Shown here one piece after another: positions 3,145-21,348 of a stretch of DNA of 26,336 nucleotides. Source of the stretch: a virus; UHGV virus genome UHGV-0273073; one strand, 5' to 3'. Every line of letters starts with the position of its first letter. The first letter of the stretch is position 1. Under the pieces are notes generated by a model that did no database searches, was not told the DNA's origin, and saw only the letters and a program-made list of their open reading frames with translations. Both the position numbers and the translations under genes were made by a program.

Positions 3145-3570
3145 TTAGCGTGGTAAGATCTGTGTAGTTTTCTGGATGCTTTCAGTAAATAGTAATGAAT
3201 TATCAAAGGTATAGTAATATCTTTTTTGTTCGTGGATATTTGTAACCCACCGAAAAACTCCTGCTTTAGCAAGGTTTCTTCTGTATTCCTGAAATGTGAT
3301 CTCTCTGGATTTCAGCTTATTAGAGGTCGTTTCTATAAGATGCCTATCCTTTGAAAATTTGACAGACACAATGTTTTTTAGGCCCTTTAATAACACTGTA
3401 TTATCATTTTTTAATACAATATGAACATTCTCTGTGGCTAAATAGTAAATGTAATGTGAGACATTGTGACGTTTTAGCTCAGAATAAAACCATTGATAGT
3501 TTAAATCGTTTCGAACTTTATCAAATATTTGTTTAAAAATGACTACCTGATCCATAGATAAACCTTCCAT
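3145..3570 (-). CDS. DUF1398-like (YdfO/YbcV-like) prophage protein; likely start at second Met (3555)
   Basis: ORF track 3145..3570 (141 aa); family assignment from recollection and synteny with Qin-type prophages. Confidence 0.6.
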
Positions 3571-3612
3571 GTGATATGAGGGGGCGTAGTCTGCACGATT
3601 ATCTAAATTGCT

Positions 3613-3846
3613 TCAATCTGGTCTGACCTGTTTTCTGAGCAATTCAGTAATGTCACTCTTTTCTTTGTTTGCTTCAGAAGAAACTCTTTTTTCTGAGCAC
3701 AGTCTCCGGCGGCAGGCTTCAATGACCCAGGCTGAGAAATTCCCGGACCCTTTTTGCTCAAGAGCGATGTTAATTTGTTCAATCATTTGGTTAGGAAAGC
3801 GGATGTTGCGGGTTGTTGTTCTGCGGGTTCTGTTCTTCGTTGACAT
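3613..3846 (-). CDS. Small ribbon-helix-helix-like DNA-binding protein
   Basis: 77 aa; NIRFPNQMIEQINIALEQKGSGNFSAWVIEACRRRL has a beta-strand/helix/helix layout typical of CopG/Arc-type RHH; basic N-terminus. Confidence 0.5.
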   Translation of the reverse strand: MSTKNRTRRTTTRNIRFPNQMIEQINIALEQKGSGNFSAWVIEACRRRLCSEKRVSSEANKEKSDITELLRKQVRPD

Positions 3847-9802: not shown

Positions 9803-10135
9803 ATGGCGACAAAAGAAGAGTTTAACCATTACCAGCCGCTGGGTAACAGTGATCCGGCTCATACAGCAATTGCGCCTGGCGGATTGAGTGCGAAAACGCC
9901 TGCAATGACCCCGCTGATGCTGGATGGCACTACCCGTAAGCTGGTTGTGTGGGATGGCACCACCGACGGTGCAGCCGTTGGCATTCTGGCGGTTGCTGCT
10001 GACCAGACCAGCACCACACTGACGTTCTACAAGTCCGGCTCGTTTCGTTATGAGGATGTGCTCTGGCCGGAGGCTGCCAGCGACGAGACTAAAAAACGGA
10101 CCGCGTTTGCCGGAACGGCAATCAGCATCGTTTAA
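9803..10135 (+). CDS. D: Head decoration protein
   Basis: 110 aa; …[75 protein letters not shown], lambda gpD-like. Confidence 0.97.
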
Positions 10136-10155
10136 TCTTCCCCTTCATCAACAAA

Positions 10156-10177
10156 GGCCGCCTGTGCGGCTTTTTTT
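10156..10177 (+). terminator. Stem-loop plus T-run in the D-E intergenic region (partial terminator/attenuator)
   Basis: GCCGC (10157..10161) - CTGT - GCGGC (10166..10170) followed by seven T (10171..10177). Confidence 0.5.
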
Positions 10178-10190
10178 ATGGAAATAATTT

Positions 10191-10466
10191 ATGTCTGTAT
10201 ATACAACTGCAGAATTACTGGCATCGACCCAGCATCACTTTAAGTTCGATCCGCTGTTTCTGCGCCTGTTTTTCCGTGAAACCTATCCTTTCACCACGGA
10301 AAAAGTCTATCTCTCACAAATTCCGGGACTGGTAAACATGGCGCTGTACGTTTCGCCGATTGTTTCCGGTGAGGTTATCCGATCCCGTGGCGGCTCCACC
10401 TCTGAATTTACGCCGGGTTATGTCAAACCCAAGCACTTAGCATGGCTTTCTGAGGCTTTCGTGTAG
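10191..10466 (+). pseudogene. E: Major capsid protein E, 5' fragment: codons 1-82 (10191..10436) fused to 9 island-encoded codons then stop
   Basis: MSVYTTAELLASTQHHFKFDPLFLRLFFRETYPFTTEKVYLSQIPGLVNMALYVSPIVSGEVIRSRGGSTSEFTPGYVKPKH is lambda gpE N-terminus; homology ends exactly after His82, followed by LAWLSEAFV*. Confidence 0.92.
10426..10435. repeat. Left copy of 10-bp direct repeat AACCCAAGCA (putative attL core)
   Basis: Identical 10-mer at 20558..20567; both copies sit at the breakpoints of E homology. Confidence 0.8.
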
Positions 10467-10563
10467 TTGCTGGTTTTTACACTTAATCTTTTGATAATAA
10501 AGAATAAGTTTATCTGGCGCTTTCACTGGATTTTCCTCGTTATCTGTGTGTTGCAATCATCTC

Positions 10564-10583
10564 TGTATTGCAGCTTGTATTGC
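10564..10583. repeat. Arm-type direct repeats TGTATTGCA / TGTATTGC at 12-bp phasing (left arm, between attL core and int)
   Basis: The same 9-mer occurs three times at 12-bp phasing on the right arm (20449..20481). Confidence 0.65.
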
Positions 10584-10598
10584 TTTTTGGGGCTAAAA

Positions 10599-11834
10599 AT
10601 GGCTGGCGAGAACAAACTGAGCGACAAAGCACTTAAAGGATATCTGGGGAAACCCAGAGAAAAGCAGATCACCATTGCTGATGGAAAGGGGCTTTCTATT
10701 CGTGTGAGTACCAAGGGGGCTGTGAGCTTTGTTTTCTTCTACAGGTTAGCAGGTGGCCGGGCTGCTCCGGTCTGGCTAACGTTGGGTAAATATCCTGATA
10801 TGTCACTCAAACAGGCAAGAGAAAAGCGCGACGAGTGCCGTGGTTGGTTGGCTGACAAACGTGATCCGCGTATCCAGATTAAGATTCAGGCTGAAGAACG
10901 CTTAAAGCCGGTCACAGTGGAGGATGCACTAAATTACTGGTATGAAAATTACTGTAAGGTGCGTCGTAAAACTCATGCTGTAACGCTTGGCAGATTTCGA
11001 AAGCATATCTTTCCCTATATCGGTCATTTGCCCGTAAATGACACTCACCTATATGAATGGCTGGACTGTTTTGACCGAATTAAACGTAATGCACCAGTTA
11101 TGGCGGCGTATGTTTTTTCTGACACTAAATTAGCTCTTCGTTTTTGTCGGGTACGCCAGTACGCGACGTGTGATGCTTTAAAGGATTTGCGCATGAGTGA
11201 TGTGGGGCAGATTGCAGGTAAGCGGGATCGGGTTCTGGATGAAGCCGAACTGGGCCAGCTCTGGAAGGCAATTTTTGTCGAGCCTGATTTAAAACTAATG
11301 TCTGAATACACGCGAAAAATGTTTGTGCTTTGTACAGTATTTGGATGTCGAATGAGTGAAGCCCGATTATCAGAATGGAGCGAATGGGATCTAGAAAGTT
11401 GGGTTTGGACTGTACCAAAAGAACACTCAAAAACCGGTGTTGAAATCGTCAGACCAGTACCTGAAATTCTACGACAGTGGGTAACGGATGTTCACGAAGA
11501 GACAAAACATACTGGTTATGTGCTGGGAAGTCTGCGAATTAGAGAAAGCGTAAGCAAGATTGGGGGGAAAATCGGTAAACGTTTGGGCCATGAAAAACAA
11601 TGGTCACTACACGACCTTAGAAGAACGCTATCTACTCATCTAAGTGATCTCGGTGTTGAATTTTATGTAGTAGAACAACTGTTAGGCCATGCGCTACCTG
11701 GCGTGGCAGGTGTTTACAACCGGAGTAAGTTTATGGCTAAAAAACTGGATGCTCTGGAACTCTGGACTACATATCTCAATAGCATCGCAGGTGCTGATTC
11801 AAAAGTGACAATCCTCAAACAAAAGGCTGGTTAA
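10599..11834 (+). CDS. int: Tyrosine site-specific integrase, P4 family (N-terminal arm-binding DUF4102-like domain)
   Basis: ATG at 10599 (MAGENKLSDKALKGYLGKP…); catalytic-region motifs HDLRRT and GVYNRSK (Tyr); the track's TTG-initiated extension 10467..10598 covers the arm repeats and is unlikely to be coding. Confidence 0.92.
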   Translation: MAGENKLSDKALKGYLGKPREKQITIADGKGLSIRVSTKGAVSFVFFYRLAGGRAAPVWLTLGKYPDMSLKQAREKRDECRGWLADKRDPRIQIKIQAEERLKPVTVEDALNYWYENYCKVRRKTHAVTLGRFRKHIFPYIGHLPVNDTHLYEWLDCFDRIKRNAPVMAAYVFSDTKLALRFCRVRQYATCDALKDLRMSDVGQIAGKRDRVLDEAELGQLWKAIFVEPDLKLMSEYTRKMFVLCTVFGCRMSEARLSEWSEWDLESWVWTVPKEHSKTGVEIVRPVPEILRQWVTDVHEETKHTGYVLGSLRIRESVSKIGGKIGKRLGHEKQWSLHDLRRTLSTHLSDLGVEFYVVEQLLGHALPGVAGVYNRSKFMAKKLDALELWTTYLNSIAGADSKVTILKQKAG

Positions 11835-11835
11835 C

Positions 11836-12066
11836 ATGAAAAAAATGGCAATTGTTGATAAAAAGGGTCTGGAGTACATTCCTAACATTGACCGAATGAT
11901 CCGTGAGAAAGAATGTCGGGAGCTAACCACTCTTGCGAACAGCACACGCTGGAAGCTGGAGAAGGAAGGAAAATTTCCTAAGCGGATCAAGATTGGTTCC
12001 ACTGCTGTTGCATATCGTCTTTCAGAAGTGCAGGCATGGATTCGAGGTGAGTGGGAAACAACTTAA
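11836..12066 (+). CDS. AlpA-family HTH regulator / excisionase-like protein
   Basis: 76 aa; core RELTTLANSTRWKLEKEGKFPKRIKIGSTAVAYRLSEVQAWI fits the AlpA/Xis pattern; directly downstream of int as in P4-like elements and PICIs. Confidence 0.75.
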   Translation: MKKMAIVDKKGLEYIPNIDRMIREKECRELTTLANSTRWKLEKEGKFPKRIKIGSTAVAYRLSEVQAWIRGEWETT

Positions 12067-12082
12067 CTATTAGGTGGGCATT

Positions 12083-12904
12083 GTGGCTATATTTCATTAT
12101 ACAGATCTTTTTGGTTTGAAAGGTATATTAGACTCTAATTCTTTATGGGCTACAAACATATATTTCTTAAATGATAAAGAGGAGTCTAACCATGGATGTG
12201 AATGCTTTCGAAATACAATTAAAATAGTTGATGACAATATCATTCCAAAAGATAAGAAAACTATTTTGCTCAAGTCTCTTGACATGTATGAGAAAGGGAG
12301 GTTACAAAAAGAAAAAGGGATTGATAAACATGTTTATAGCATCTCTTTTTGTAAGGAAAACGATAAGTTAAGTCAGTGGAGAGGTTACGGAAATAAACAG
12401 GGTGTTTGCATTGAGTTTGATGCGGATGAACTTGTGAGCTTTTCTCAAAATATTTATTTAAATTGTGTTGCACATGATGTTATATATTCAAATAATAACG
12501 ATGTTACTAAGATGAGTAAGGAGTTGGGGGCGTTTTTTTCTTGTAATGGTATTAATATTAAAGAAAAGAATGATCATTTTGTAACAATGGCCTCTACGTA
12601 TCAATTTATATCTAAATACATCCCATTTTTTAAACATCCTAGTTTTATCGAAGAAAATGAATTTAGATTGGTATTTACTCCGCGCATACTAATACCAGAT
12701 GTGCAATTCAGAATAAATAATAATGGTGTCATCCCTTATATCATCATTGGTAATAAAGATCATAGGAAGTTACCAATTAAAAGTATTACTATTGGCCCGA
12801 CAAACGATTATGATTTCATTGAGGCTGGTATAAAAATGTTCTTGGATTCAAAAGGATTTAGTTCAGTGGAAATTAAATCCTCATCAATTCCATTCAGGGG
12901 GTAA
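12083..12904 (+). CDS. Cargo protein of unknown function, AT-rich (possibly DUF2971-like)
   Basis: ORF track 12074..12904; GTG at 12083 preceded by AGGTGG; codon usage and AT content clearly differ from flanking genes; motifs IYFLNDKEE and YSISFCKENDKLSQWRGYGNKQGVCIEF. Confidence 0.7.
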   Translation: MAIFHYTDLFGLKGILDSNSLWATNIYFLNDKEESNHGCECFRNTIKIVDDNIIPKDKKTILLKSLDMYEKGRLQKEKGIDKHVYSISFCKENDKLSQWRGYGNKQGVCIEFDADELVSFSQNIYLNCVAHDVIYSNNNDVTKMSKELGAFFSCNGINIKEKNDHFVTMASTYQFISKYIPFFKHPSFIEENEFRLVFTPRILIPDVQFRINNNGVIPYIIIGNKDHRKLPIKSITIGPTNDYDFIEAGIKMFLDSKGFSSVEIKSSSIPFRG

Positions 12905-12949
12905 GGATTAACACTTTTAATCTATGATGTTATAAAAATGGTGGATAAA

Positions 12950-12969
12950 GGCGACCAGAATTGGTCGCC
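12950..12969. terminator. Hairpin between convergent cargo genes (possible bidirectional terminator)
   Basis: GGCGACCA-GAAT-TGGTCGCC, 8-bp perfect stem. Confidence 0.45.
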
Positions 12970-13035
12970 AATGTGAGTATATAGTTAGCCTTAATCAGAA
13001 TACGAGGTTGTCGACTGATAGGCAATGTGAACAGT

Positions 13036-13392
13036 TCAATATTTAGGTGGTTCAACAAGAGCGTTTATCATTGCTCTCAAATTATCGCGAACACTTATCC
13101 AAGTCTGTTCTGCTCGTTCTAACTCATCAGTGTACAACTTTAATGTTTTATCTATGCCATATGTGGCTATTAAATTTATAGCTTCTTGTAACTTTTCGGG
13201 ATTATTCCTTCTTGGGGGAGTGAATATACCACGGATTTTTCCGGTAATTAAAGCTTTACGGTGTCTACATAGAATACCTTTACTTCCTGCTGGACAATTG
13301 CAAGTCATGATTAGCGAGCCAGAATCGTTTGATACAGTGACTATGTATACATCCAAACTACTGCTACTTGTTGCGAAGAATTCGTATTTCAT
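13036..13392 (-). CDS. Small SWIM-type zinc-finger protein (CxC-x8-CxH)
   Basis: 118 aa; TCNCPAGSKGILCRHRKAL; strong AAGGAG Shine-Dalgarno 7 nt upstream of the ATG on the minus strand. Confidence 0.7.
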   Translation of the reverse strand: MKYEFFATSSSSLDVYIVTVSNDSGSLIMTCNCPAGSKGILCRHRKALITGKIRGIFTPPRRNNPEKLQEAINLIATYGIDKTLKLYTDELERAEQTWISVRDNLRAMINALVEPPKY

Positions 13393-13419
13393 GTGTTAGC
13401 TCCTTGACTTCAATTACTC

Positions 13420-13551
13420 TTATCCTTTTGGTTCAATACCGCGCCGTAGCAGCTCTTTGCGCCCTAATTCTTTAAGCCAGTTGGCTAGGCTTATGCCGTC
13501 GCTCTGCGCTTCTTTGTCGAATTGCTCTTTTAGCTCTGGAGAAATTCGCAT
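13420..13551 (-). CDS. Ribbon-helix-helix (CopG/Arc-like) protein, start uncertain
   Basis: MRISPELKEQFDKEAQSDGISLANWLKELGRKELLRRGIEPKG, C-terminal part of track ORF 13420..13734; 27 nt upstream of the SWIM gene on the same strand. Confidence 0.55.
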   Translation of the reverse strand: MRISPELKEQFDKEAQSDGISLANWLKELGRKELLRRGIEPKG

Positions 13552-13946
13552 TCTGAATTGTGGAGATTGCCCATCACCCTTAGGACTTTTATCGCGTTTG
13601 ATTGTTGACAAGTGACCACCTATTGAATTAGCCTTTTTACTGTTAGGTGACCACCTTAACACGGAGGCACTTAAAAAAGCAAAGCCCGAAGGCGCTAGGA
13701 ACACCAACGGGCTTCTAACCACCAACGATAGCAACAGTATCGAGATAGCTATGAGAAATCATACCACACACCCGCAAGGGCGGGACCCGCACAACCTGAA
13801 TAAATACATCTGGCGTTTTATCGCCCTGAGCACCGCACAACCACGCGTAATACACATCGAGGCCGCCAGCGGACAGGAAGCCCGCCAACAATCCCCAACT
13901 GGCTGCGTGATGATATTCGCCGCCCGTATTCGTCAGGAGGTATGCC

Positions 13947-14132
13947 GTGCTTAAAACCTTCCGTGTATTTGCTCGTGCTGTTAACCCACGAGGCCACACA
14001 ATTGGTATCGCTCAGAACGTGAAGGCTGTTAATGTTCAGACGGCTATTGCTGCGGTGAGAAGCGAATCATCAGAATATGGCTTATCACAAGTCATTATTT
14101 CAGCAGTGTATGAATTAAAAGAGGTGCATTAA
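13947..14132 (+). CDS. Hypothetical small protein, first gene of the replication operon
   Basis: GTG start with perfect AGGAGG 6 nt upstream; stop overlaps the next start. Confidence 0.6.
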   Translation: MLKTFRVFARAVNPRGHTIGIAQNVKAVNVQTAIAAVRSESSEYGLSQVIISAVYELKEVH

Positions 14133-14323
14133 TGCAGGAAATCACATTACACGAAGCCGCTGAACGTGCGCACCAGACAGAGATTATTTGCCGCCTTCTT
14201 GAGGTATACCCTGATAAATTAAATGATGCTGATATATCCGCATTAGCTAGTCTTCTGGCAAGACTGTCAGGAAGTGTTGCACTGTGGTTAATTGATCAGA
14301 GGGTAGAACGTTATGGAGAATAA
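14132..14323 (+). CDS. Hypothetical small protein (operon member)
   Basis: Translationally coupled to flanking ORFs. Confidence 0.55.
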   Translation: MQEITLHEAAERAHQTEIICRLLEVYPDKLNDADISALASLLARLSGSVALWLIDQRVERYGE

Positions 14324-14555
14324 TAAACTTTCGCTTGCAGAGGTGTCGGAATCCATGAACAGTGCAATAAGCTATAATAATTCGGCAATTGAAATTGCAA
14401 ACTTGTGGTTTCAATTGCTGTCAAACAACGAAAGAGATGAATCAACGGCAAGACTTATATTTGCTATTTCTGAATTGCTGGATATTTCCACCAGCAAGAT
14501 AAACAAAGCATTAGAAAAAATTCACGAATTAAAACACCACACAAACGGAATTTAA
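14313..14555 (+). CDS. Hypothetical small protein (operon member)
   Basis: Overlaps the previous ORF; AT-rich. Confidence 0.5.
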   Translation: MENNKLSLAEVSESMNSAISYNNSAIEIANLWFQLLSNNERDESTARLIFAISELLDISTSKINKALEKIHELKHHTNGI

Positions 14556-14559
14556 TTAT

Positions 14560-14859
14560 ATGGGAATGAAAAATACTGGTGTTAATGCCAGCGGCCCCGC
14601 TCGACCTGAATTTATGAACGGCGATATTTACCGCGATAAATACGGCGGCACGGTAACGATTAAAGGCGTGGCAGAACGGCGCATCACTTACCGCCGTGAG
14701 GGGTATAGCTATGACTGCGTGATGCCTGTTTATCAGTTCCGGCGTGATTTTTCCCTGGTATATGCCGCACCCCGCAGTAAGCCCACCAGCAGGGAAAAAG
14801 CGCGGGGAAACATCCAGAAAATGAAAAGCATGATTAACGCATTCAGGGGCAAAAAATGA
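14560..14859 (+). CDS. Hypothetical protein upstream of primase (operon member)
   Basis: 99 aa; stop overlaps the primase ATG (ATGA at 14856). Confidence 0.6.
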   Translation: MGMKNTGVNASGPARPEFMNGDIYRDKYGGTVTIKGVAERRITYRREGYSYDCVMPVYQFRRDFSLVYAAPRSKPTSREKARGNIQKMKSMINAFRGKK

Positions 14860-16607
14860 AACTGGCACCGAACTTAAAAAAACAGCCACGCGACAGACTG
14901 ACAGAGGTAATCATCTTTGCAGGTAGTGATGCGTGGAGCCATGCGAAAGAGTGGCAGGAATGGGCGGGTAAACATATTGCCGCCGACGATGTGCCGCCTG
15001 TCGTGCTGGCTGATGAGCAACTGAAAAACATCACCGATTACCGGATCATTGATGAAGATCGTCAGTGTGTGCGTGTTTACCGCGCAGGACATATCACAGA
15101 GCACAGCATGACGCAGATTGTTACGTTACTGGCTGTGGCTGGAGTGAAGACCGTACACGAATACGCGGGGATTACTGACACCAGCCCCGTGGATTTATCC
15201 GACCAGTTGCCGCGACTCAAAGAGGAATGCGAGCGTGGGGAAAGCCTGGTGCTTAATCTTCCGACGAAGCAAAAGGAGCAACTTTCACAGATGGCAGACA
15301 GTGAGCGGGCACAACTACTTGCCGATCGCTTTGATGGTGTTTGTGTTCATGCAGAAAGTGAAATCGTCCACGTATGGCGCGGCGGGGTATGGTGTCCGGT
15401 CAGCACAATGGAGCTGAGCCGCGAAATGGTGGCGATCTATTCAGAGCACAGGGCCACGTTCAGCAAACGCGTAATCAATAACGCCGTGGAAGCGTTAAAA
15501 GTTATTGCCGCCCCCATGGGGGAGCCGTCCGGTGATTTGCTACCGTTCACTAATGGTGTGCTTAATCTGAAAACGGGGGAATTTTCTCCGCACTCGCCGG
15601 AGCACTGGAGCACCACGCACAATGGTATTGAGTACACGCCACCAGTAGCAGGGGAAAACATCCGCGATAATGCGCCAAATTTCCATAAATGGCTTGAACA
15701 TGCTGCAGGAAAAGACCCGCGCAAGATGATGCGTATATGTGCCGCGTTATACATGATTATGGCGAACCGCTACGACTGGCAGATGTTCATTGAGGCCACC
15801 GGAGACGGGGGAAGCGGTAAGAGTACATTTACCCATATTGCCACCCTGCTTGCAGGCAAACAGAACACCGTAAGCGCAGAGATGACATCACTCGATGATG
15901 CAGGAGGGCGCGCGCAGGTTGTCGTGAGTCGTCTTATCGTCCTTGCCGATCAGCCGAAATATACGGGGGAAGGCACGGGCATCAAGAAAATCACGGGAGG
16001 CGATCCCGTTGAAATCAATCCGAAATATGAGAAGCGATTCACGACGATAATAAGGGCGGTGGTACTGGCAACCAATAACGACCCGATGATCTTTACCGAA
16101 CGGGCCGGAGGTGTGTCACGCCGTCGGGTGATTTTCCGGTTCGACAACATTGTAAGGGAGGACGAAAAAGACAAGGAATTACCGGAAAAGATAGCGGCAG
16201 AAATCCCCGTAATTATCCGCCGCTTGCTGGCTAACTTTGCTGACCCTGAAAAGGCAAGGGCTTTACTACTGGAACAGCGTGACGGTGATGAAGCTCTGGC
16301 AATAAAGCAGCAAACGGATCCAGTTGTTGAGCTTTGCGCGGCGCTTGAGTTTCTGGATGAAGCTCGTGGGCTAATGATGGGCGGTGGTGGTGACTCCGTG
16401 AAGTACACGACCAGAAACAGCCTTTACCGTGTCTATATGGCCTTCATGGCATACACAGGAAAGGGGAAATGTTTGAGCGTGAATGAGTTCGGAAAGGCTA
16501 TGAGGTCAGCGGCGAAAGTTTACGGATATGAATATATTACGCGAAAAGTTAAGGGAGTCACGCAGACCAACGCAACGACTACTGATGATTGCGATGCGTT
16601 TTTATAA
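14856..16607 (+). CDS. Replication primase/helicase (P4-alpha/PICI pri-rep-like, P-loop NTPase)
   Basis: 583 aa; Walker A GDGGSGKST; Walker B-like VLADQ; immediately followed by the iteron array. Confidence 0.85.
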   Translation: MKLAPNLKKQPRDRLTEVIIFAGSDAWSHAKEWQEWAGKHIAADDVPPVVLADEQLKNITDYRIIDEDRQCVRVYRAGHITEHSMTQIVTLLAVAGVKTVHEYAGITDTSPVDLSDQLPRLKEECERGESLVLNLPTKQKEQLSQMADSERAQLLADRFDGVCVHAESEIVHVWRGGVWCPVSTMELSREMVAIYSEHRATFSKRVINNAVEALKVIAAPMGEPSGDLLPFTNGVLNLKTGEFSPHSPEHWSTTHNGIEYTPPVAGENIRDNAPNFHKWLEHAAGKDPRKMMRICAALYMIMANRYDWQMFIEATGDGGSGKSTFTHIATLLAGKQNTVSAEMTSLDDAGGRAQVVVSRLIVLADQPKYTGEGTGIKKITGGDPVEINPKYEKRFTTIIRAVVLATNNDPMIFTERAGGVSRRRVIFRFDNIVREDEKDKELPEKIAAEIPVIIRRLLANFADPEKARALLLEQRDGDEALAIKQQTDPVVELCAALEFLDEARGLMMGGGGDSVKYTTRNSLYRVYMAFMAYTGKGKCLSVNEFGKAMRSAAKVYGYEYITRKVKGVTQTNATTTDDCDAFL

Positions 16608-16620
16608 AAAATGGCAATGG

Positions 16621-16850
16621 TTATCTACCTTGTCTACCTGACTGAAAGAAAATACTTTTATTTCAATGTATTAATGCAGGTAGATAACTATTTTTCACTG
16701 TCTACCTGTTATCTACCTTATCTACCCATTTTTGTAGACAGGTAAGGAGACGGGTAGAGATGAGGTAGACAGCTATTTGGGGCTGTCTACCTCCCTGAAA
16801 CCCGCGCCATTACTGGCCTGATAACTAATCAGGTAGACAAGGTAGACAAG
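16621..16850. repeat. Iteron-type replication origin: at least 12 copies of GTCTACC / GGTAGAC in both orientations plus an AT-rich spacer
   Basis: Copies at about 16623, 16632, 16678, 16701, 16711, 16720, 16734, 16753, 16764, 16785, 16831, 16841; AT-rich 16641..16676. Confidence 0.8.
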
Positions 16851-16896
16851 GTGGTGGTGCACAAAAAACTTTTTAAACGAGGGGGTAAAAATAAAA

Positions 16897-17154
16897 ATGC
16901 ACACATCAGGAAAACTGAACAAACATATAAAGCCACATTACCGCGCCCTTGATATGGCTGAACACTGGCTAAGGGTGGCGATTAAGGCAATAGACCGCAA
17001 CGCCGGGGAAGGATACGCGAAAGCACATCCCGAACTGATAAGCGCATTCATGACAACGGCGGCTGCAAACTTTGCCACGCTGACCGAACGGGAGATTGCC
17101 GAAGCGGAGGAAGTGACAACCATCAATATTAAGTCCGGAGAGCAGGCAGCATGA
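16897..17154 (+). CDS. Hypothetical 85-aa protein
   Basis: Stop overlaps the ssb start. Confidence 0.5.
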   Translation: MHTSGKLNKHIKPHYRALDMAEHWLRVAIKAIDRNAGEGYAKAHPELISAFMTTAAANFATLTEREIAEAEEVTTINIKSGEQAA

Positions 17155-17600
17155 CGGCGCAAATAGCAGCTTACGGGCGGCTGGTGGACGCCCCGCAGAC
17201 AAAACAGACCAGCAAGGGCACCCCCATGACGCTGGCGCGTATGGCGGTATCACTGCCCTGCAGCCAGTCGGATGACGGTCAGGCGACGATGTGGTTATCT
17301 GTTCTGGCGTTTGGCAGACAAGCCGACGCGCTGGCAAAGCATCACAAAGGCGAACTCCTGAGCGTGGCGGGTAACATGCAGGTGAGTCAGTGGACTGGAC
17401 AGAACGGTGAAACGCGGCAGGGCTGGCAGGTTATCGCAGACAGCGTAATCAGTGCGCGAACGGTGCGACCGGGCGGCAAAAAAGGCCAACAGGGGCAGGC
17501 TACTGACGCACTGAACAGAGCAAAACAACAGGCAGATCAGCAAGGAAGCCATCCACCAGTGGGAGATAATGAGCAATGGGGAGATGATATTCCGTTTTAA
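17151..17600 (+). CDS. ssb: Single-stranded DNA-binding protein
   Basis: 149 aa; OB-fold core and acidic C-terminal tail ending DDIPF, as in E. coli SSB. Confidence 0.9.
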   Translation: MTAQIAAYGRLVDAPQTKQTSKGTPMTLARMAVSLPCSQSDDGQATMWLSVLAFGRQADALAKHHKGELLSVAGNMQVSQWTGQNGETRQGWQVIADSVISARTVRPGGKKGQQGQATDALNRAKQQADQQGSHPPVGDNEQWGDDIPF

Positions 17601-17618
17601 ATATTGCCAATAAAAAAG

Positions 17619-17643
17619 GCCGGAAAAAAATAAATTTTCCGGC
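17619..17643 (+). other. Hairpin (9-bp stem GCCGGAAAA / TTTTCCGGC) between ssb and the capsid-homolog gene
   Basis: Perfect inverted repeat with 7-nt loop AAATAAA; no downstream T-run. Confidence 0.4.
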
Positions 17644-17817
17644 ATGCTACATAAATCCAGACCAAAGGGAGTGAAGATATTAACACTAATTATCCGCGCT
17701 GAAGTTGTCATCCCAAAACTTTATACAACATTGCACTCGGTTGCATGTATTCGCATGACAAATATCGGTGATAGCATATATCCACAATTATTTTTAATGA
17801 ATGCAAAGAGGATGCGT

Positions 17818-18858
17818 ATGGTTGATTTATATTCGCCTACCCAGCTTGTACAGGTGGTTAATGCTGTAGATGTACAAAAACAACTAAATGCGTTGTTTAC
17901 CAGTTTGTTTTTTACTCGCTCGGTAATGTTTGAATCGCGCGATATTATTCTTGATACAATCGACGATCCAAATATCCCAATTGCAGCGTTTTGTTCTCCT
18001 ATGGTGGGTAGTAAAGTTTCACGTGACGAAGGGTACGAATCAAAAACAATTCGTCCAGGCTATATGAAGCCGAAAAGCAGCATTGATCCAAATAAGTTAG
18101 CTGTGCGCCCTGCTGGTGTATCACCTGAGCAATACAATGCTTTTGGAGCGCGTAATATTAAAGTTAAACAGGCGATTGTAAATCAGGCTAAAGCTATTCG
18201 TGCACGTATTGAATGGCTTGCCGTTCAGGCAATCACAACGGGGAAAAATATCATTGAGGGCGATGGTATTGAACGTTATGAGCTGGACTGGAATATTAAA
18301 CCACAAAATATCATCACTCAGTCTGGCGGTGCTGAGTGGTCAGGTAAGGATAAAGAAACTTTTGATCCAAATGATGATATTGAGAGCTACGCAGAATTTA
18401 GTGAGGGCGTCACTAATATCATCATTATGGGCGGTAATGTATGGAAGAAATACCGTTCATTCAGAGCGATAAAAGAGGCTCTGGATACCCGTCGTGGTTC
18501 TAATTCCGAACTGGAAACGGCCCTTAAAGACCTTGGTGATTCGGTGAGTTTTAAAGGGTATATGGGCGATGTTGCGATTGTTGTATACAGCGGGCGTTAT
18601 ACCGACGAGGACGGAACTGAAAAACATTTCCTTGATCCTGATTTGATGGTGCTTGGCAATACGGCTCTTCAGGGGATTGTCGCCTATGGCGGTATTCAGG
18701 ATCCGGAGCTAATCCGAATGGGGCTGACTAAAGCCGAACTTGCACCGAAAAACTATATTGTGCCTGGTGATCCGGCTATTGAATATGTGCAGACACATTC
18801 AGCACCACAGCCAATACCGGCCCGCATCAATCGTTTTGTTACCGTTCGCATTGGCTAA
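17818..18858 (+). CDS. Island-encoded major capsid protein homolog (divergent gpE-like)
   Basis: 346 aa from ATG 17818 (AGAGG 6 nt upstream), inside track ORF 17644..18858. Blocks ITQSGGAEWSGKDKETFDPNDDIESYA and DTRRGSNSELETALKDLGDSVSFKGYMGDVAIVVYSG align with ITQSGGTEWSKRDKSTYDPTDDIEAYA and DTRRGSHSELETAVKDLGKAVSYKGMYGDVAIVVYSG of the resident E (20569..21348). Confidence 0.9.
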   Translation: MVDLYSPTQLVQVVNAVDVQKQLNALFTSLFFTRSVMFESRDIILDTIDDPNIPIAAFCSPMVGSKVSRDEGYESKTIRPGYMKPKSSIDPNKLAVRPAGVSPEQYNAFGARNIKVKQAIVNQAKAIRARIEWLAVQAITTGKNIIEGDGIERYELDWNIKPQNIITQSGGAEWSGKDKETFDPNDDIESYAEFSEGVTNIIIMGGNVWKKYRSFRAIKEALDTRRGSNSELETALKDLGDSVSFKGYMGDVAIVVYSGRYTDEDGTEKHFLDPDLMVLGNTALQGIVAYGGIQDPELIRMGLTKAELAPKNYIVPGDPAIEYVQTHSAPQPIPARINRFVTVRIG

Positions 18859-18867
18859 GGGGGAGCA

Positions 18868-19209
18868 ATGGCTACTCATTACACTGAACTCATGGCTGGC
18901 ACTGAAGCACTGGTGACTACGCTGGGGATATTTTCAGCTAATAAAGGGGTAATTCCTGCATTTACGCCACTGATGCAGGAAGATGCAACAGGTGCACTGG
19001 TGGTATGGGATGGTTCGAGCGTAGGTAAAGCGGTTTATGTTTCCGCTGTACAAATCGACACCGCGAAAAAAACACAGGCTCAGGTCTATAAGACAGGTGT
19101 CTTAAATGTTGATGCTCTGAACTGGCCTGAGTCTGTAAAAGAACTGTCAGTAAAGATTGCAGCGTTTGTTGGCTCAGGTATTTCTGTTCAGCCGCTGGCT
19201 CGTGTGTAA
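18868..19209 (+). CDS. Island-encoded head decoration protein homolog (divergent gpD-like)
   Basis: 113 aa; TPLMQEDATGALVVWDGSS…YKTGVLNVDALNWPES…AAFVGSGISV aligns with resident [20 protein letters not shown]…[16 protein letters not shown]…[11 protein letters not shown]. Confidence 0.8.
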   Translation: MATHYTELMAGTEALVTTLGIFSANKGVIPAFTPLMQEDATGALVVWDGSSVGKAVYVSAVQIDTAKKTQAQVYKTGVLNVDALNWPESVKELSVKIAAFVGSGISVQPLARV

Positions 19210-19220
19210 AGGGGGATACA

Positions 19221-19604
19221 ATGCAAAATGATTACAATGACCTTAAGCCAATTGCCGAAATGATGTACCCGAATCCAGCTGTAGAGGAATTAAAAGCTAT
19301 CGCTGACAAAATGTGTTTAAGCGAGCGCCTTGTTGATATGAATCAGGTGATGGAAATTACAACCCTGAGTCGGCGTACACTGCTAAACCTTGAGGCTAGT
19401 GGAGAGTTCCCGGAGCGTGTGCAGGTTACGGAAGGGCGTAAGGCCTGGTATTTAAGTGAAGTGATCGACTGGATAAATAATATTCCTCGCGCTTCTGAAT
19501 ATTGCCGCGTACCTGTCCCAAAAAAGCCAGATGCGGCGCTATGCCTCAAGATTGAGCGTGTACGCCGCAATGCACGGGATGGTCGCTATAAGCTGATTGG
19601 TTGA
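19221..19604 (+). CDS. HTH protein (AlpA/excisionase-like fold with N-terminal extension) adjacent to the cos-like site
   Basis: 127 aa; MNQVMEITTLSRRTLLNLEASGEFPERVQVTEGRKAWYLSEVIDWI. Confidence 0.6.
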   Translation: MQNDYNDLKPIAEMMYPNPAVEELKAIADKMCLSERLVDMNQVMEITTLSRRTLLNLEASGEFPERVQVTEGRKAWYLSEVIDWINNIPRASEYCRVPVPKKPDAALCLKIERVRRNARDGRYKLIG

Positions 19605-19629
19605 TGAAATTAGGGCCCGCTCTGGCTGG

Positions 19630-19838
19630 CGGGTCCTTTCCGGCGATCTGACAGGCTACGGGGCGTCAGGCGCGCGGATTTTCGCTATTTATGAAAATTT
19701 TCCGGTTTAAGGCGTTTCCGTTCTTCTTCGTCGTAACTTAATGTTTTTATTTAAAATACCCCCTGAAAAGAAAGGAAACGACAGGTGCTGAAAGCGAGCT
19801 TTTTGGCCTCTGTCGTTTCCTTTCTCGTTTTTTGTTCA
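19630..19838 (+). promoter_or_regulatory. Island cos-like packaging site: cosQ/cosB nearly identical to the prophage cos (4016..4223), divergent cosN-equivalent 12-mer GGGCGTCAGGCG at 19661..19672
   Basis: By-eye alignment: about 150 bp of the cosB arm differ by only a few substitutions; the cosN 12-mer differs at 5 of 12 positions; no terminase genes in the island. Confidence 0.85.
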
Positions 19839-20185
19839 ACAATTGCGCGGTAGCAACTCGCCTTTCTGCTGCTGGAACTTATCCGGCACGTTTCCAGTGA
19901 TATCTGTCAGACAGCAGGCAAACAGGAGACAACGCAGTCGGACAGCACGACCGCTGAAAATTACGCGCGTGTGGTGCTTGAGGTTATGCGCCGTGACGGT
20001 ATCGAGCTTAACGGCGTGGATATGTGCAACATACGCACCAGAGTTCTGGAGTTGTTGCCATATCGTCGCCGTTCCATGTAGCGAAGGGAGAGCGCGAAAA
20101 ACACTTACCAGTGGAAGAAGCAGGAGCGGTTACGGCGGTAACTTGCTGATATTCCCGATAACGCAAAATTGCGTTGGCTGGCAGA

Positions 20186-20404
20186 GTGCAAATTTGCACG
20201 ATGGTCTAACCCATTGATTCTTTCGAAAATCACCATTGGGGGATAACGGGGGAATAAGCCTAACCCATTGATTCTTCCACAATCCTCAATTTGAGGAGAG
20301 CGGAATTATTACATGGCTGGATCAGGACTCCTTGAATTCAAGGAGTTCTCCTGTGTGAAAATGAAATTACCCAAGTTGGTGGGTGAGTTGCAGATCTGCA
20401 ACTC
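20186..20404. promoter_or_regulatory. Cluster of four palindromes in the island right arm: 20186..20199, 20284..20296, 20328..20345, 20385..20404
   Basis: GTGCAAATTTGCAC (14 bp, perfect), CCTCAATTTGAGG (imperfect), CTCCTTGAATTCAAGGAG (18 bp, perfect), GAGTTGCAGATCTGCAACTC (20 bp, perfect). Confidence 0.6.
20206..20276. repeat. Two copies of the 17-mer CTAACCCATTGATTCTT (20206..20222, 20260..20276), resembling the att core (AACCCA…)
   Basis: Exact direct repeat; shares AACCCA with the core AACCCAAGCA. Confidence 0.6.
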
Positions 20405-20448
20405 GGCTATGAAACTTAATAATCGAACAGCATGTAAATTCATTTCTG

Positions 20449-20481
20449 TGTATTGCAGCATGTATTGCAGCATGTATTGCA
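20449..20481. repeat. Three phased copies of TGTATTGCA (12-bp period), right-arm arm-type sites
   Basis: 20449, 20461, 20473; the same motif occurs twice on the left arm (10564..10583). Confidence 0.65.
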
Positions 20482-20557
20482 ACATAGTCATTCTGGTAGA
20501 GATTATGCTCTATTTTTCCTCTTATATCATTCACATACTTACGTCATTGACTCATGT

Positions 20558-20567
20558 AACCCAAGCA
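20558..20567. repeat. Right copy of 10-bp direct repeat AACCCAAGCA (putative attR core)
   Basis: Identical to 10426..10435; E homology resumes 1 nt after it. Confidence 0.8.
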
Positions 20568-20568
20568 T

Positions 20569-21348
20569 GAGGTGAATCCGCAGATGACCCTGCGTCGCCT
20601 GCCGGATGAAGATCCGCAGAACCTGGCTGACCCGGCTTACCGTCGTCGCCGTATTATTCGGCAGAATATGCTGGATGAAAATCTGGCGATTGCCCAGGTC
20701 GAAGAGATGCAGGCAGTTTCTGCCGTGCTTAAGGGCAAATACACCATGACCGGTGAAGCCTTCGATCCGGTTGAGGTGGATATGGGCCGCAGTGCGGCGA
20801 ATAACATCACGCAGTCCGGCGGCACAGAGTGGAGCAAGCGTGACAAGTCCACGTATGACCCGACCGACGATATCGAAGCCTACGCGCTGAACGCCAGCGG
20901 TGTGGTGAATATCATCGTGTTTGATCCGAAAGGCTGGGCGCTGTTCCGTTCCTTCAAGGCCGTCAAGGAGAAGCTGGATACCCGTCGCGGCTCTCATTCC
21001 GAGCTGGAGACAGCGGTAAAAGACCTGGGCAAAGCGGTGTCTTATAAGGGAATGTATGGCGATGTGGCCATCGTCGTGTATTCCGGACAGTACGTGGAAA
21101 ACGGCGTCAAAAAGAACTTCCTGCCGGACAACACGATGGTGCTGGGGAACACTCAGGCACGCGGTCTGCGCACCTATGGTTGCATTCAGGATGCGGACGC
21201 ACAGCGCGAAGGCATTAACGCCTCTGCCCGTTACCCGAAAAACTGGGTGACCACCGGCGACCCGGCGCGTGAGTTCACCATGATTCAGTCAGCACCGCTG
21301 ATGCTGCTGGCTGACCCTGATGAGTTCGTGTCCGTTCAACTGGCGTAA
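20569..21348 (+). pseudogene. E: Major capsid protein E, 3' portion (codons 83-341), separated from its 5' part by the island
   Basis: Frame reads TAA-P-K-H-EVNPQMTLRRLPDEDPQNL… through the normal C-terminus …DPDEFVSVQLA; 82 + 259 residues = 341 as in lambda gpE; an in-frame TAA (20557..20559) lies just upstream. Confidence 0.92.

Follow-up and report, generated by a model that had tools for sequence, protein, structure and literature searches.

A candidate array of phage regulator operators and IHF sites at the right end of a prophage-embedded satellite

We analyzed a 26,336-nucleotide stretch of viral DNA (UHGV virus genome UHGV-0273073, referred to here as the window), in which an island of the phage-inducible chromosomal island (PICI) type interrupts the capsid gene of a lambdoid prophage, and focused on a cluster of palindromes in the right arm of this satellite. 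We consider it probable that positions 20139 to 20404 are an array of duplex-DNA operator copies for regulators of the phage Bro network and for integration host factor (IHF). The array would contain three modules, named P0, U1, and U2 here, each pairing a host IHF site with a dyad centered 16 to 17 nt away; U1 and U2 are near-exact copies of a composite site from two different alleles of the phage gene roi, and P0 is a third module with the same geometry. From sequence, geometry, homology, and distribution we infer that these sites may be occupied in trans by IHF and by Roi- and KilA-N-type proteins of infecting or coresident lambdoid phages, and that the array could serve the satellite as a sensor for such phages or as a sink for their regulators. 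Alternatively, it could control a possible weak rightward promoter that overlaps the palindrome P3.

Dyads, IHF boxes, and their counterparts in phage genes

Within 245 bp, the array contains perfect palindromes of 14, 20, and 20 bp and two dyads that are nearly perfect, with spacers that are absent or 1 to 2 nt long. We refer to its dyads as P0, P1, U1, U2 (also P2), P3, and P4 and to its matches to the IHF consensus as boxes 0, 1, and 2. P0 (AACGCAA-AA-TTGCGTT, 20160 to 20175) is followed by the perfect 14-bp palindrome P1 (GTGCAAATTTGCAC, 20186 to 20199), which lies 7 nt upstream of box 1, and by the degenerate dyad U1 (TCACCATTGGGGGA, 20230 to 20243). U2 (TCCTCAATTTGAGGA, 20283 to 20297; CCTCAAATTGAGG on the − strand) has a 7+1+7 structure, and P3 (ACTCCTTGAATTCAAGGAGT, 20327 to 20346) and P4 (GAGTTGCAGATCTGCAACTC, 20385 to 20404) are perfect 20-bp palindromes. 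A preliminary description of this DNA had placed four of the dyads correctly, but P3, listed there as an 18-mer, is really the 20-mer given above, and the inner part of U2 (CCTCAATTTGAGG, 20284 to 20296), called imperfect, is a perfect 6+1+6 dyad; P0 and U1 had been missed. Chance expectations were derived from 5,000 dinucleotide-preserving shuffles of positions 20140 to 20420, none of which contained three perfect palindromes with arms of at least 7 nt (mean, 0.019 per shuffle), and an arm of at least 10 nt occurred in 0.02% of them. Three of the four palindromes with arms of at least 7 nt in the whole window fall in the array, as do both of its 10-nt-arm palindromes, for which 0.01 per window would be expected. 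This shows that the palindrome cluster is real and far beyond chance.

The IHF consensus was taken as WATCARNNNNTTR, the reverse complement of which (TAAnnnnYTGATW) precedes P0, U1, and U2 on the + strand. Box 0 (TATCAGCAAGTTA, 20139 to 20151), box 1 (AATCAATGGGTTA, 20207 to 20219), and box 2 (AATCAATGGGTTA again, 20261 to 20273, 54 nt after box 1) are exact matches on the − strand, box 0 overlapping the TAA that ends a 93-amino-acid (93-aa) last gene in related islands. Six exact matches occur in the 26-kb window, against 2.2 expected, and these three lie within 135 bp (20139 to 20273). Measured to the dyad center, P0 (16.5 nt from box 0), U1, and U2 are each 16 to 17 nt from a perfect IHF consensus.

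When phage genomes were searched with positions 20130 to 20420, all matches lay in roi genes. The segment from 20255 to 20297, comprising box 2 and U2, matches roi of JLK-2012, Lahn2, and phi330 at 43 of 43 nt and shows 97.7% identity to the gene of Stx1a-converting phages; U2 is a copy of the JLK-2012/Stx1-type dyad. The 32 nt from 20213 to 20244, covering U1, are 94% identical to roi of VT2-Sakai, HK629, and others; read on the − strand as CCCCCAATGGTGA (20230 to 20242), U1 is an imperfect copy of the HK629/VT2-Sakai-type dyad CCCCCAATGGTGG and agrees with that allele at 12 of 13 positions. The shared piece consists exactly of the 13-bp dyad, 10 bp, and the IHF consensus (roi nt 130 to 165), and the flanking coding sequence is not shared. 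The spacing between box and dyad in U1 and U2 equals that in roi, and P0 shows the same center-to-box distance with a different dyad form.

Roi has been cited as a DNA-binding protein (PMC4587872, PMC3430580). A helix-turn-helix protein of the "antirepressor" type, it combines a Rha-type N-terminal region (with a Pfam score under the curated cutoff) with a KilAC/ANT C-terminal domain. Across 83 roi genes, the dyad takes the form CCTCAA[AT]TTGAGG, CCCCCAATGGTGG, or CCTGCATTGCAGG (CCTGCATTGCAGC in HK022) and stays symmetric though the residues it encodes change (PQIE, PPMV, and PALQ), and the IHF consensus is fixed at nt 153. In this set, the dyad type covaries with the putative recognition helix (RHDKVKQSIERL in the HK629/VT2-Sakai allele and RHDNVKRTIE[TM]L in the JLK-2012/Stx1 allele), and the sole allele without the dyad is also without the IHF consensus. 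The roi gene of HK022, which we take to be the experimentally studied allele, has the same layout of dyad and IHF site; HK022 Roi is said to bind inside its own gene beside an IHF site, with IHF stabilizing the complex. In the noncoding copy carried by the closest Escherichia coli relative (L001), U1 is a perfect dyad (CCCCCAATGGGGG); by contrast, coding constraint limits the roi allele to an ending in GTGG.

The same geometry recurs in other PICIs. A perfect dyad centered 16 to 16.5 nt from the box end is present in 27 of 34 distinct IHF-box units from PICI arms, and the dyad sequences differ widely (TCCCCCATTGGGGGA, CCTGCAATGCAGG, TCCTCAA[AT]TTGAGGA, AAGTGCAAAAATGCACTT, AACGCAAAATTGCGTT, CCCAAAAATGGG, CAGCCAACGGCTG, and TTCGCCAGCGGCGAA). 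The box is conserved before every P0-type dyad, and at the P0 offset other PICIs carry different dyads (AGCGCA/TGCGTT, CCCA/TGGG, or AAGTGCA/TGCACTT). IHF boxes elsewhere in the loci are seldom accompanied by such a dyad, and the exceptions are nearly all further PICI-arm units. An example is L069, a helper-embedded PICI (HE-PICI), in which four units stand in a row on the reverse strand (about 12048 to 12460), the last three in 54-nt phase; a P0-type dyad is followed there by all three roi dyad types (CCTGCAATGCAGG, CCCCCATTGGGGG, and TCCTCAATTTGAGGA). A further conserved unit, made of the IHF consensus and TAAAAATTTTTA at the same 16-nt offset, lies elsewhere in five PICI loci (L005, L015, L039, L044, and L174; e.g., L005 at 509 to 560), adjoining a possible gene start.

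P4 points to a second family of regulators, as it contains exactly a palindrome linked to KilA-N genes (AGTTGCAGATCTGCAACT). The 18-mer core of P4 was found in 80 IMG/VR loci, of which about 67 are PICI arms. Four cores lie inside KilA-N genes (Pfam E value of about 1e-22), where they encode (E/K)LQICNS in a variable loop, and nine lie 131 to 134 nt before a KilA-N start codon, just after a terminator, so that 13 of 13 occurrences outside PICI arms are linked to KilA-N (among them L297, 5335 to 6108; L298, 46 to 789; L296, L299 to L305, and L307). This suggests that AGTTGCAGATCTGCAACT is a cis element traveling with this KilA-N gene family, and P4 is presumably the operator of the KilA-N protein. 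A decayed KilA-N or roi pseudogene was rejected as the source of the arm, given that tblastn yields only ELQICNS and weak, noncolinear motifs. The earlier proposal that the dyads are operator-like sites for several dimeric proteins, possibly helper encoded, is thus supported by the roi copies U1 and U2, the shared geometry of P0, and the KilA-N linkage of P4.

The remaining two dyads are less easily placed. P1 always accompanies box 1 in the long-form arms described below, and its half-sites (GTGCA/TGCAC) match the P0 variant AAGTGCAAAAATGCACTT. P3 is lineage specific: its surroundings match only 5 of 5,426 complete E. coli genomes, it has shrunk to TCCTTGA-TT-TCAAGGA in L001-type arms, and P3-like palindromes in other phage and viral contigs occur in mixed intergenic contexts with no common neighboring gene.

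Palindromes at the end of an operon could also act as transcript hairpins, i.e., as stabilizers of the 3′ untranslated region, terminators, or processing sites in late-operon mRNA. We initially favored RNA hairpins because of the changes in the P0 stem, which varies between islands by compensatory and G-U-compatible substitutions, and dropped them on the IHF-box geometry and the identity to roi; we now regard this explanation as improbable. P0 does lie 17 nt past the stop codon of the last gene, and for both strands the folding of the region is far stronger than that of shuffles (z = −4.0 and −5.6). However, folding on both strands is automatic for palindromes, spacers of 0 to 2 nt make poor loops, no U-tract follows any dyad (nor any T-run after P0 to P4 on either strand), and the two weak sites from a terminator scan, a number not above that in shuffles, do not coincide with any palindrome. 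A covariance search with Rfam 15 (E values up to 1) of window positions 10000 to 21000 and three related arms found nothing relevant. RNA folding would, moreover, leave unexplained both the fixed distance to IHF and the identity to an intragenic phage site.

Distribution among satellite arms and relation to the attachment site

The arm is noncoding, as the preliminary description had supposed from its open reading frames (ORFs): an 85-aa ORF (20313 to 20570) is cut short in the closest relative, where its fourth codon is followed by a stop. The lack of conservation in related islands that had been named as potential counterevidence is not seen, given that the IMG/VR contig L016 is identical across positions 19840 to 20570, bar one additional 12-nt repeat, and five other loci are 93.5 to 94% identical across 20157 to 20570. 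The whole arm or parts of it match DNA in 1,152 of 5,426 complete E. coli genomes. On its right the array is bounded by three tandem copies of the 12-mer TGTATTGCAGCA (20449 to 20485, + strand), the published arm motif of the HE-PICI attachment (att) site attP. The number of these copies is three in the window, four in L016, and two in L001, elements that are otherwise nearly identical.

To compare arms, we brought about 130 instances of the arm motif found in IMG/VR into a common orientation. P4 at −64 together with P3 at −120 from the motif is confined to the lineage of the window (L001, L016, L018, L019, L023, and L037). Several other arm types with the same capsid-E core carry unrelated sequence upstream of the TGTATTGCA motif and no such dyads, so that dyad sequence and position are not conserved among elements sharing the integrase and att site. 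Conversely, P0 and P4 also occur in PICIs with other integrases (inserted at fis or adjoining clpS), among them a type that forms capsids and uses another terminase. Since arms that share the att site lack the dyads and PICIs with other integrases have them, this comparison of sequences places the dyads outside the integrase/att machinery.

These observations bear on the idea that the dyads are accessory sites in the P arm of attP, or operators of a promoter reading into int after circularization, bound by the AlpA, ribbon-helix-helix (RHH), or Int proteins of the island, to which we give little credence. Several features would suit it: excision places the arm upstream of int-alpA, two AlpA-type helix-turn-helix (HTH) proteins and an RHH-like protein are among the island products, and an IHF consensus is found in the other arm as well. 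A possible weak rightward promoter can also be discerned by eye (a −35-like TTGAAT overlapping P3, 18 nt, and the extended −10 element TGTGAAAAT), with P4 downstream of it, and is kept in both arm variants. Against this stand the distribution given above, the distance of 155 to 400 bp between the dyads and the att core, and a promoter scan that called no promoter in the array. No copy of any palindrome was found elsewhere in the window, including near island promoters and regulatory genes, which speaks against the proposed binding by the HTH and RHH proteins of the island itself. Control of excision or of the int promoter, which had also been put forward, does not fit the dyad-free HE-PICIs with the same att site or the presence of P0 and P4 in PICIs with other integrases, and the promoter had been taken to point leftward, whereas int is transcribed rightward. 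The exact IHF consensus of the attL-side arm (TATCAAAAGATTA, 10484 to 10496, − strand) lies between the core and the TGTATTGCA motif, where an H′-type site is expected.

In its commonest form, the arm consists of P0 followed directly by P4. The arm of the window is a 225-bp long form, in which P1, U1, U2, and P3 lie between the two; a MITE-like insertion (of the miniature inverted-repeat transposable element type) flanked by GGCTGG was considered as the source of this form and was rejected, as no terminal inverted repeats are apparent by eye. P4 is invariant save for two central N positions in 33 distinct contexts (loci anchored downstream of P4). A module that is conserved in numerous PICIs at their right ends has P4 as its first element. 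The window retains P4 and 11 nt of this module, after which the integrase-specific arm starts. Two other candidate features around P4 were rejected. A Chi element (GCTGGTGG) stands just before P4 in many arms, including L001, L002, and L003, but the window has GTTGGTGG here (20375 to 20382); other arms have ACTGGTGG or TAATGGGG at this position. A 26-aa ORF after P4 in short-form arms (beginning MKLRKLPVVWVV) is absent from the window, and a compensatory change spans its stop codon. The arm type of L041 had no match in the phage collection.

Four 7-mers with 9-bp spacing come after P4 in the PICIs located at fis or beside clpS (AAACTAC GG AAACTAC CC GTAGTTT GG GTAGTAA; L002, about 3580 to 3615; L003, about 3295 to 3330); they are absent from the window. 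The alignment of L002 and L003 downstream of P4 shows about 400 nt of further conservation, within which a hairpin displays the compensatory change from GATACCC/GGGTATC to GATCCCC/GGGGATC. This region may represent the arm sites of another integrase clade or an RNA.

The satellite, its helper, and the origin of cognate proteins

The window is a Qin-like lambdoid prophage with lysis genes and Nu1, A, W, B, C, and D. Its lambda-E-type major capsid gene E begins at 10191 (first part, 10191 to 10466), is interrupted by the 10.1-kb island (about 10436 to 20567), and picks up again at about 20560 (to 21348). The island is an HE-PICI of the published type, at site E:Phage_cap_E:80, for which an attP motif has likewise been described (Tommasini, Mageeney and Williams 2023, PMC10111431). 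The attR core AACCCAAGCA lies at 20558 to 20567 on the + strand, with its attL copy at 10426 to 10435, and a partner of the arm motif in the same orientation lies at about 10562 to 10585 (exact TGTATTGCA at 10564). Besides Int, which has an arm-binding domain and is encoded on the + strand from 10599, the island encodes AlpA, a DUF2971 protein, a SWIM protein, the RHH-like protein, a D5-type primase, SSB, and an AlpA-like 127-aa HTH protein, as well as its own homologues of capsid E (17644 to 18858) and gpD (18868 to 19209). Tandem 9-bp repeats after the primase gene (TTATCTACC, two copies, and AGGTAGACA, 2.4 copies, at 16709 to 16726 and 16831 to 16852), roughly inverted relative to each other, are probably iterons of the satellite replication origin.

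The island genes are followed by a lambda-type cos (about 19650 to 19830), which stands where the relatives L001 and L003 have terS; judging by eye against the lambda sequence, we take it to be nearly identical and to hold a complete-looking cosQ-cosN-cosB. The 93-aa last gene (19843 to 20142) is a pseudogene here, with its start codon gone and a premature stop at 20078 to 20080, and a search of genome contigs with the 93-aa protein gave no match. The array sits between this pseudogene, whose stop lies at about 20140, and the arm-motif repeats, i.e., roughly 300 to 750 bp to the right of cos. It might thus be a packaging recognition array, in which cosB-like IHF sites and dyads would be bound by the small terminase or an Rpp-type protein and aid terminase at cos. 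Lambda cosB also pairs sites for an HTH dimer with an IHF site, and in relatives the array comes after terS and the gene for the AlpA-like 127-aa HTH protein. Nevertheless, we judge this very improbable: the window already contains what appears, on the comparison by eye, to be a complete lambda-like cos, the roi segments to which the units are identical are remote from any cos in phages, and capsid-forming PICIs that use another terminase system have these units, too.

No Roi, Rha, ANT, or KilA-N protein is among the proteins encoded by the island, and about 170 PICI loci, many of which are incomplete, likewise yielded no homologue of Roi or KilA-N. A cognate roi in the helper was also considered and rejected, given that neither the DLP12-like helper of L001 nor the intact Qin-like helper relatives, between their replication genes and Q, show one. 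If the sites are used, the proteins must therefore come from other lambdoid phages.

This absence of roi from the two kinds of helper relatives weighs against an array of functional operators, and several other points do so as well. U1 is degenerate in the window, and P1 and P3 are further dyads for which no partner was identified. P4 sits at a recombination joint with the rest of its conserved module gone and could therefore be a relic. Some P0 variants have G-T instead of complementary positions, which fits an RNA hairpin, too, and the Roi/IHF site mapped in HK022 may not be exactly the dyad described here.

Part of these points would also follow if the arm were nonfunctional recombination debris, in which short fragments of Bro-network genes (roi and KilA-N) had been left by mosaic exchange between satellites and phages, with the palindromes as passengers. 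Short and long forms and joints adjoining P0 and P4 make the mosaic nature of the arm visible, the neighboring 93-aa gene is decayed, the module downstream of P4 is truncated, the resident helper type is without roi, and peptide-like matches to Roi motifs, as well as weak ones to those of KilA-N, come from the − strand of the arm. We nonetheless consider debris unlikely, if worth keeping in mind. Of roi, only the 43-nt piece that bears the site was kept; two or more copies of it, derived from different alleles, share one orientation and a 54-nt phase. The fragments are colinear with no gene, and one dyad has better symmetry in a noncoding copy than within the gene. Dozens of diverged units, in addition, maintain the IHF consensus and the 16- to 17-nt geometry, and P4 is invariant in its 33 contexts.

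Implications and comparison with known systems

If the modules really bind Roi- and KilA-N-type proteins, concrete candidate proteins and DNA sites can be named for the interplay of satellite and helper. The palindromes inside or beside their own genes would also be a first hint at the targets of two very common and poorly understood phage protein families. Even if the array is inert, it documents the uptake by satellites of short, site-bearing pieces of phage regulator genes. Going further, we tentatively propose, with more doubt than confidence, that a modular library of operators copied from lambdoid Bro networks (several Roi alleles, each with IHF, and a KilA-N operator) is maintained at the right end of enterobacterial PICIs and would allow one satellite to detect the early regulators of many helpers or to titrate them at high copy number. 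If this is true, the array would be the missing cis element, and Roi and KilA-N proteins the missing trans factors, in helper sensing or interference by Gram-negative PICIs.

The element type and its arm motif are known from earlier work, as is the Roi/IHF site in phage HK022. To our knowledge, neither tandem multiallelic copies of this site on a satellite without the proteins nor the KilA-N-linked palindrome has been described. Like the HE-PICIs of the earlier study, the island lies inside a lambda-E-type gene, runs from int-alpA through replication genes to a late zone, and has the doubled TGTATTGCA on both sides of the attP center, about 81 bp before it and 132 bp after it (PMC10111431). 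In contrast, the array lies beyond the arm motif and is absent from most HE-PICIs. That study noted its arm motif as unlike an IHF site and does not mention palindromes, inverted repeats, or the IHF sites described here (PMC10111431).

The composite site of roi resembles the satellite modules in its 13-bp dyad, 10-bp A/T-rich spacer, and WATCARNNNNTTR, with identities of 100% for U2 and 94% for U1 to two alleles; it differs in that the satellite copies lie outside genes, present several specificities in tandem, and have no Roi encoded alongside. Similarly, the phage KilA-N palindrome is identical to satellite P4 over 18 to 20 bp, although the phage copy lies within or about 130 nt upstream of its gene and the satellite has no KilA-N gene nearby.

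Two further systems combine comparable elements. The RIB/RIP elements of E. coli consist of an IHF site flanked by repetitive extragenic palindromic (REP) sequences at the 3′ ends of operons. They share with the array the placement of IHF sites beside palindromes in noncoding DNA at the end of a transcription unit and the occurrence as tandem repeats. The palindromes of the array, which presumably are not REP-like, are diverse and match gene-internal phage sites, however, and they are found on satellites rather than chromosome-wide. In satellite phage P4, the late promoters Psid and PLL carry a dyad that is recognized by the activators Ogr of P2 and Delta of P4, so that noncoding satellite DNA with sites for helper regulators makes the satellite responsive to its helper. 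The array would offer a parallel through its predicted sites, except that the regulators would be of the Roi/Rha and KilA-N types rather than of the Ogr type and that several specificities stand in place of one.

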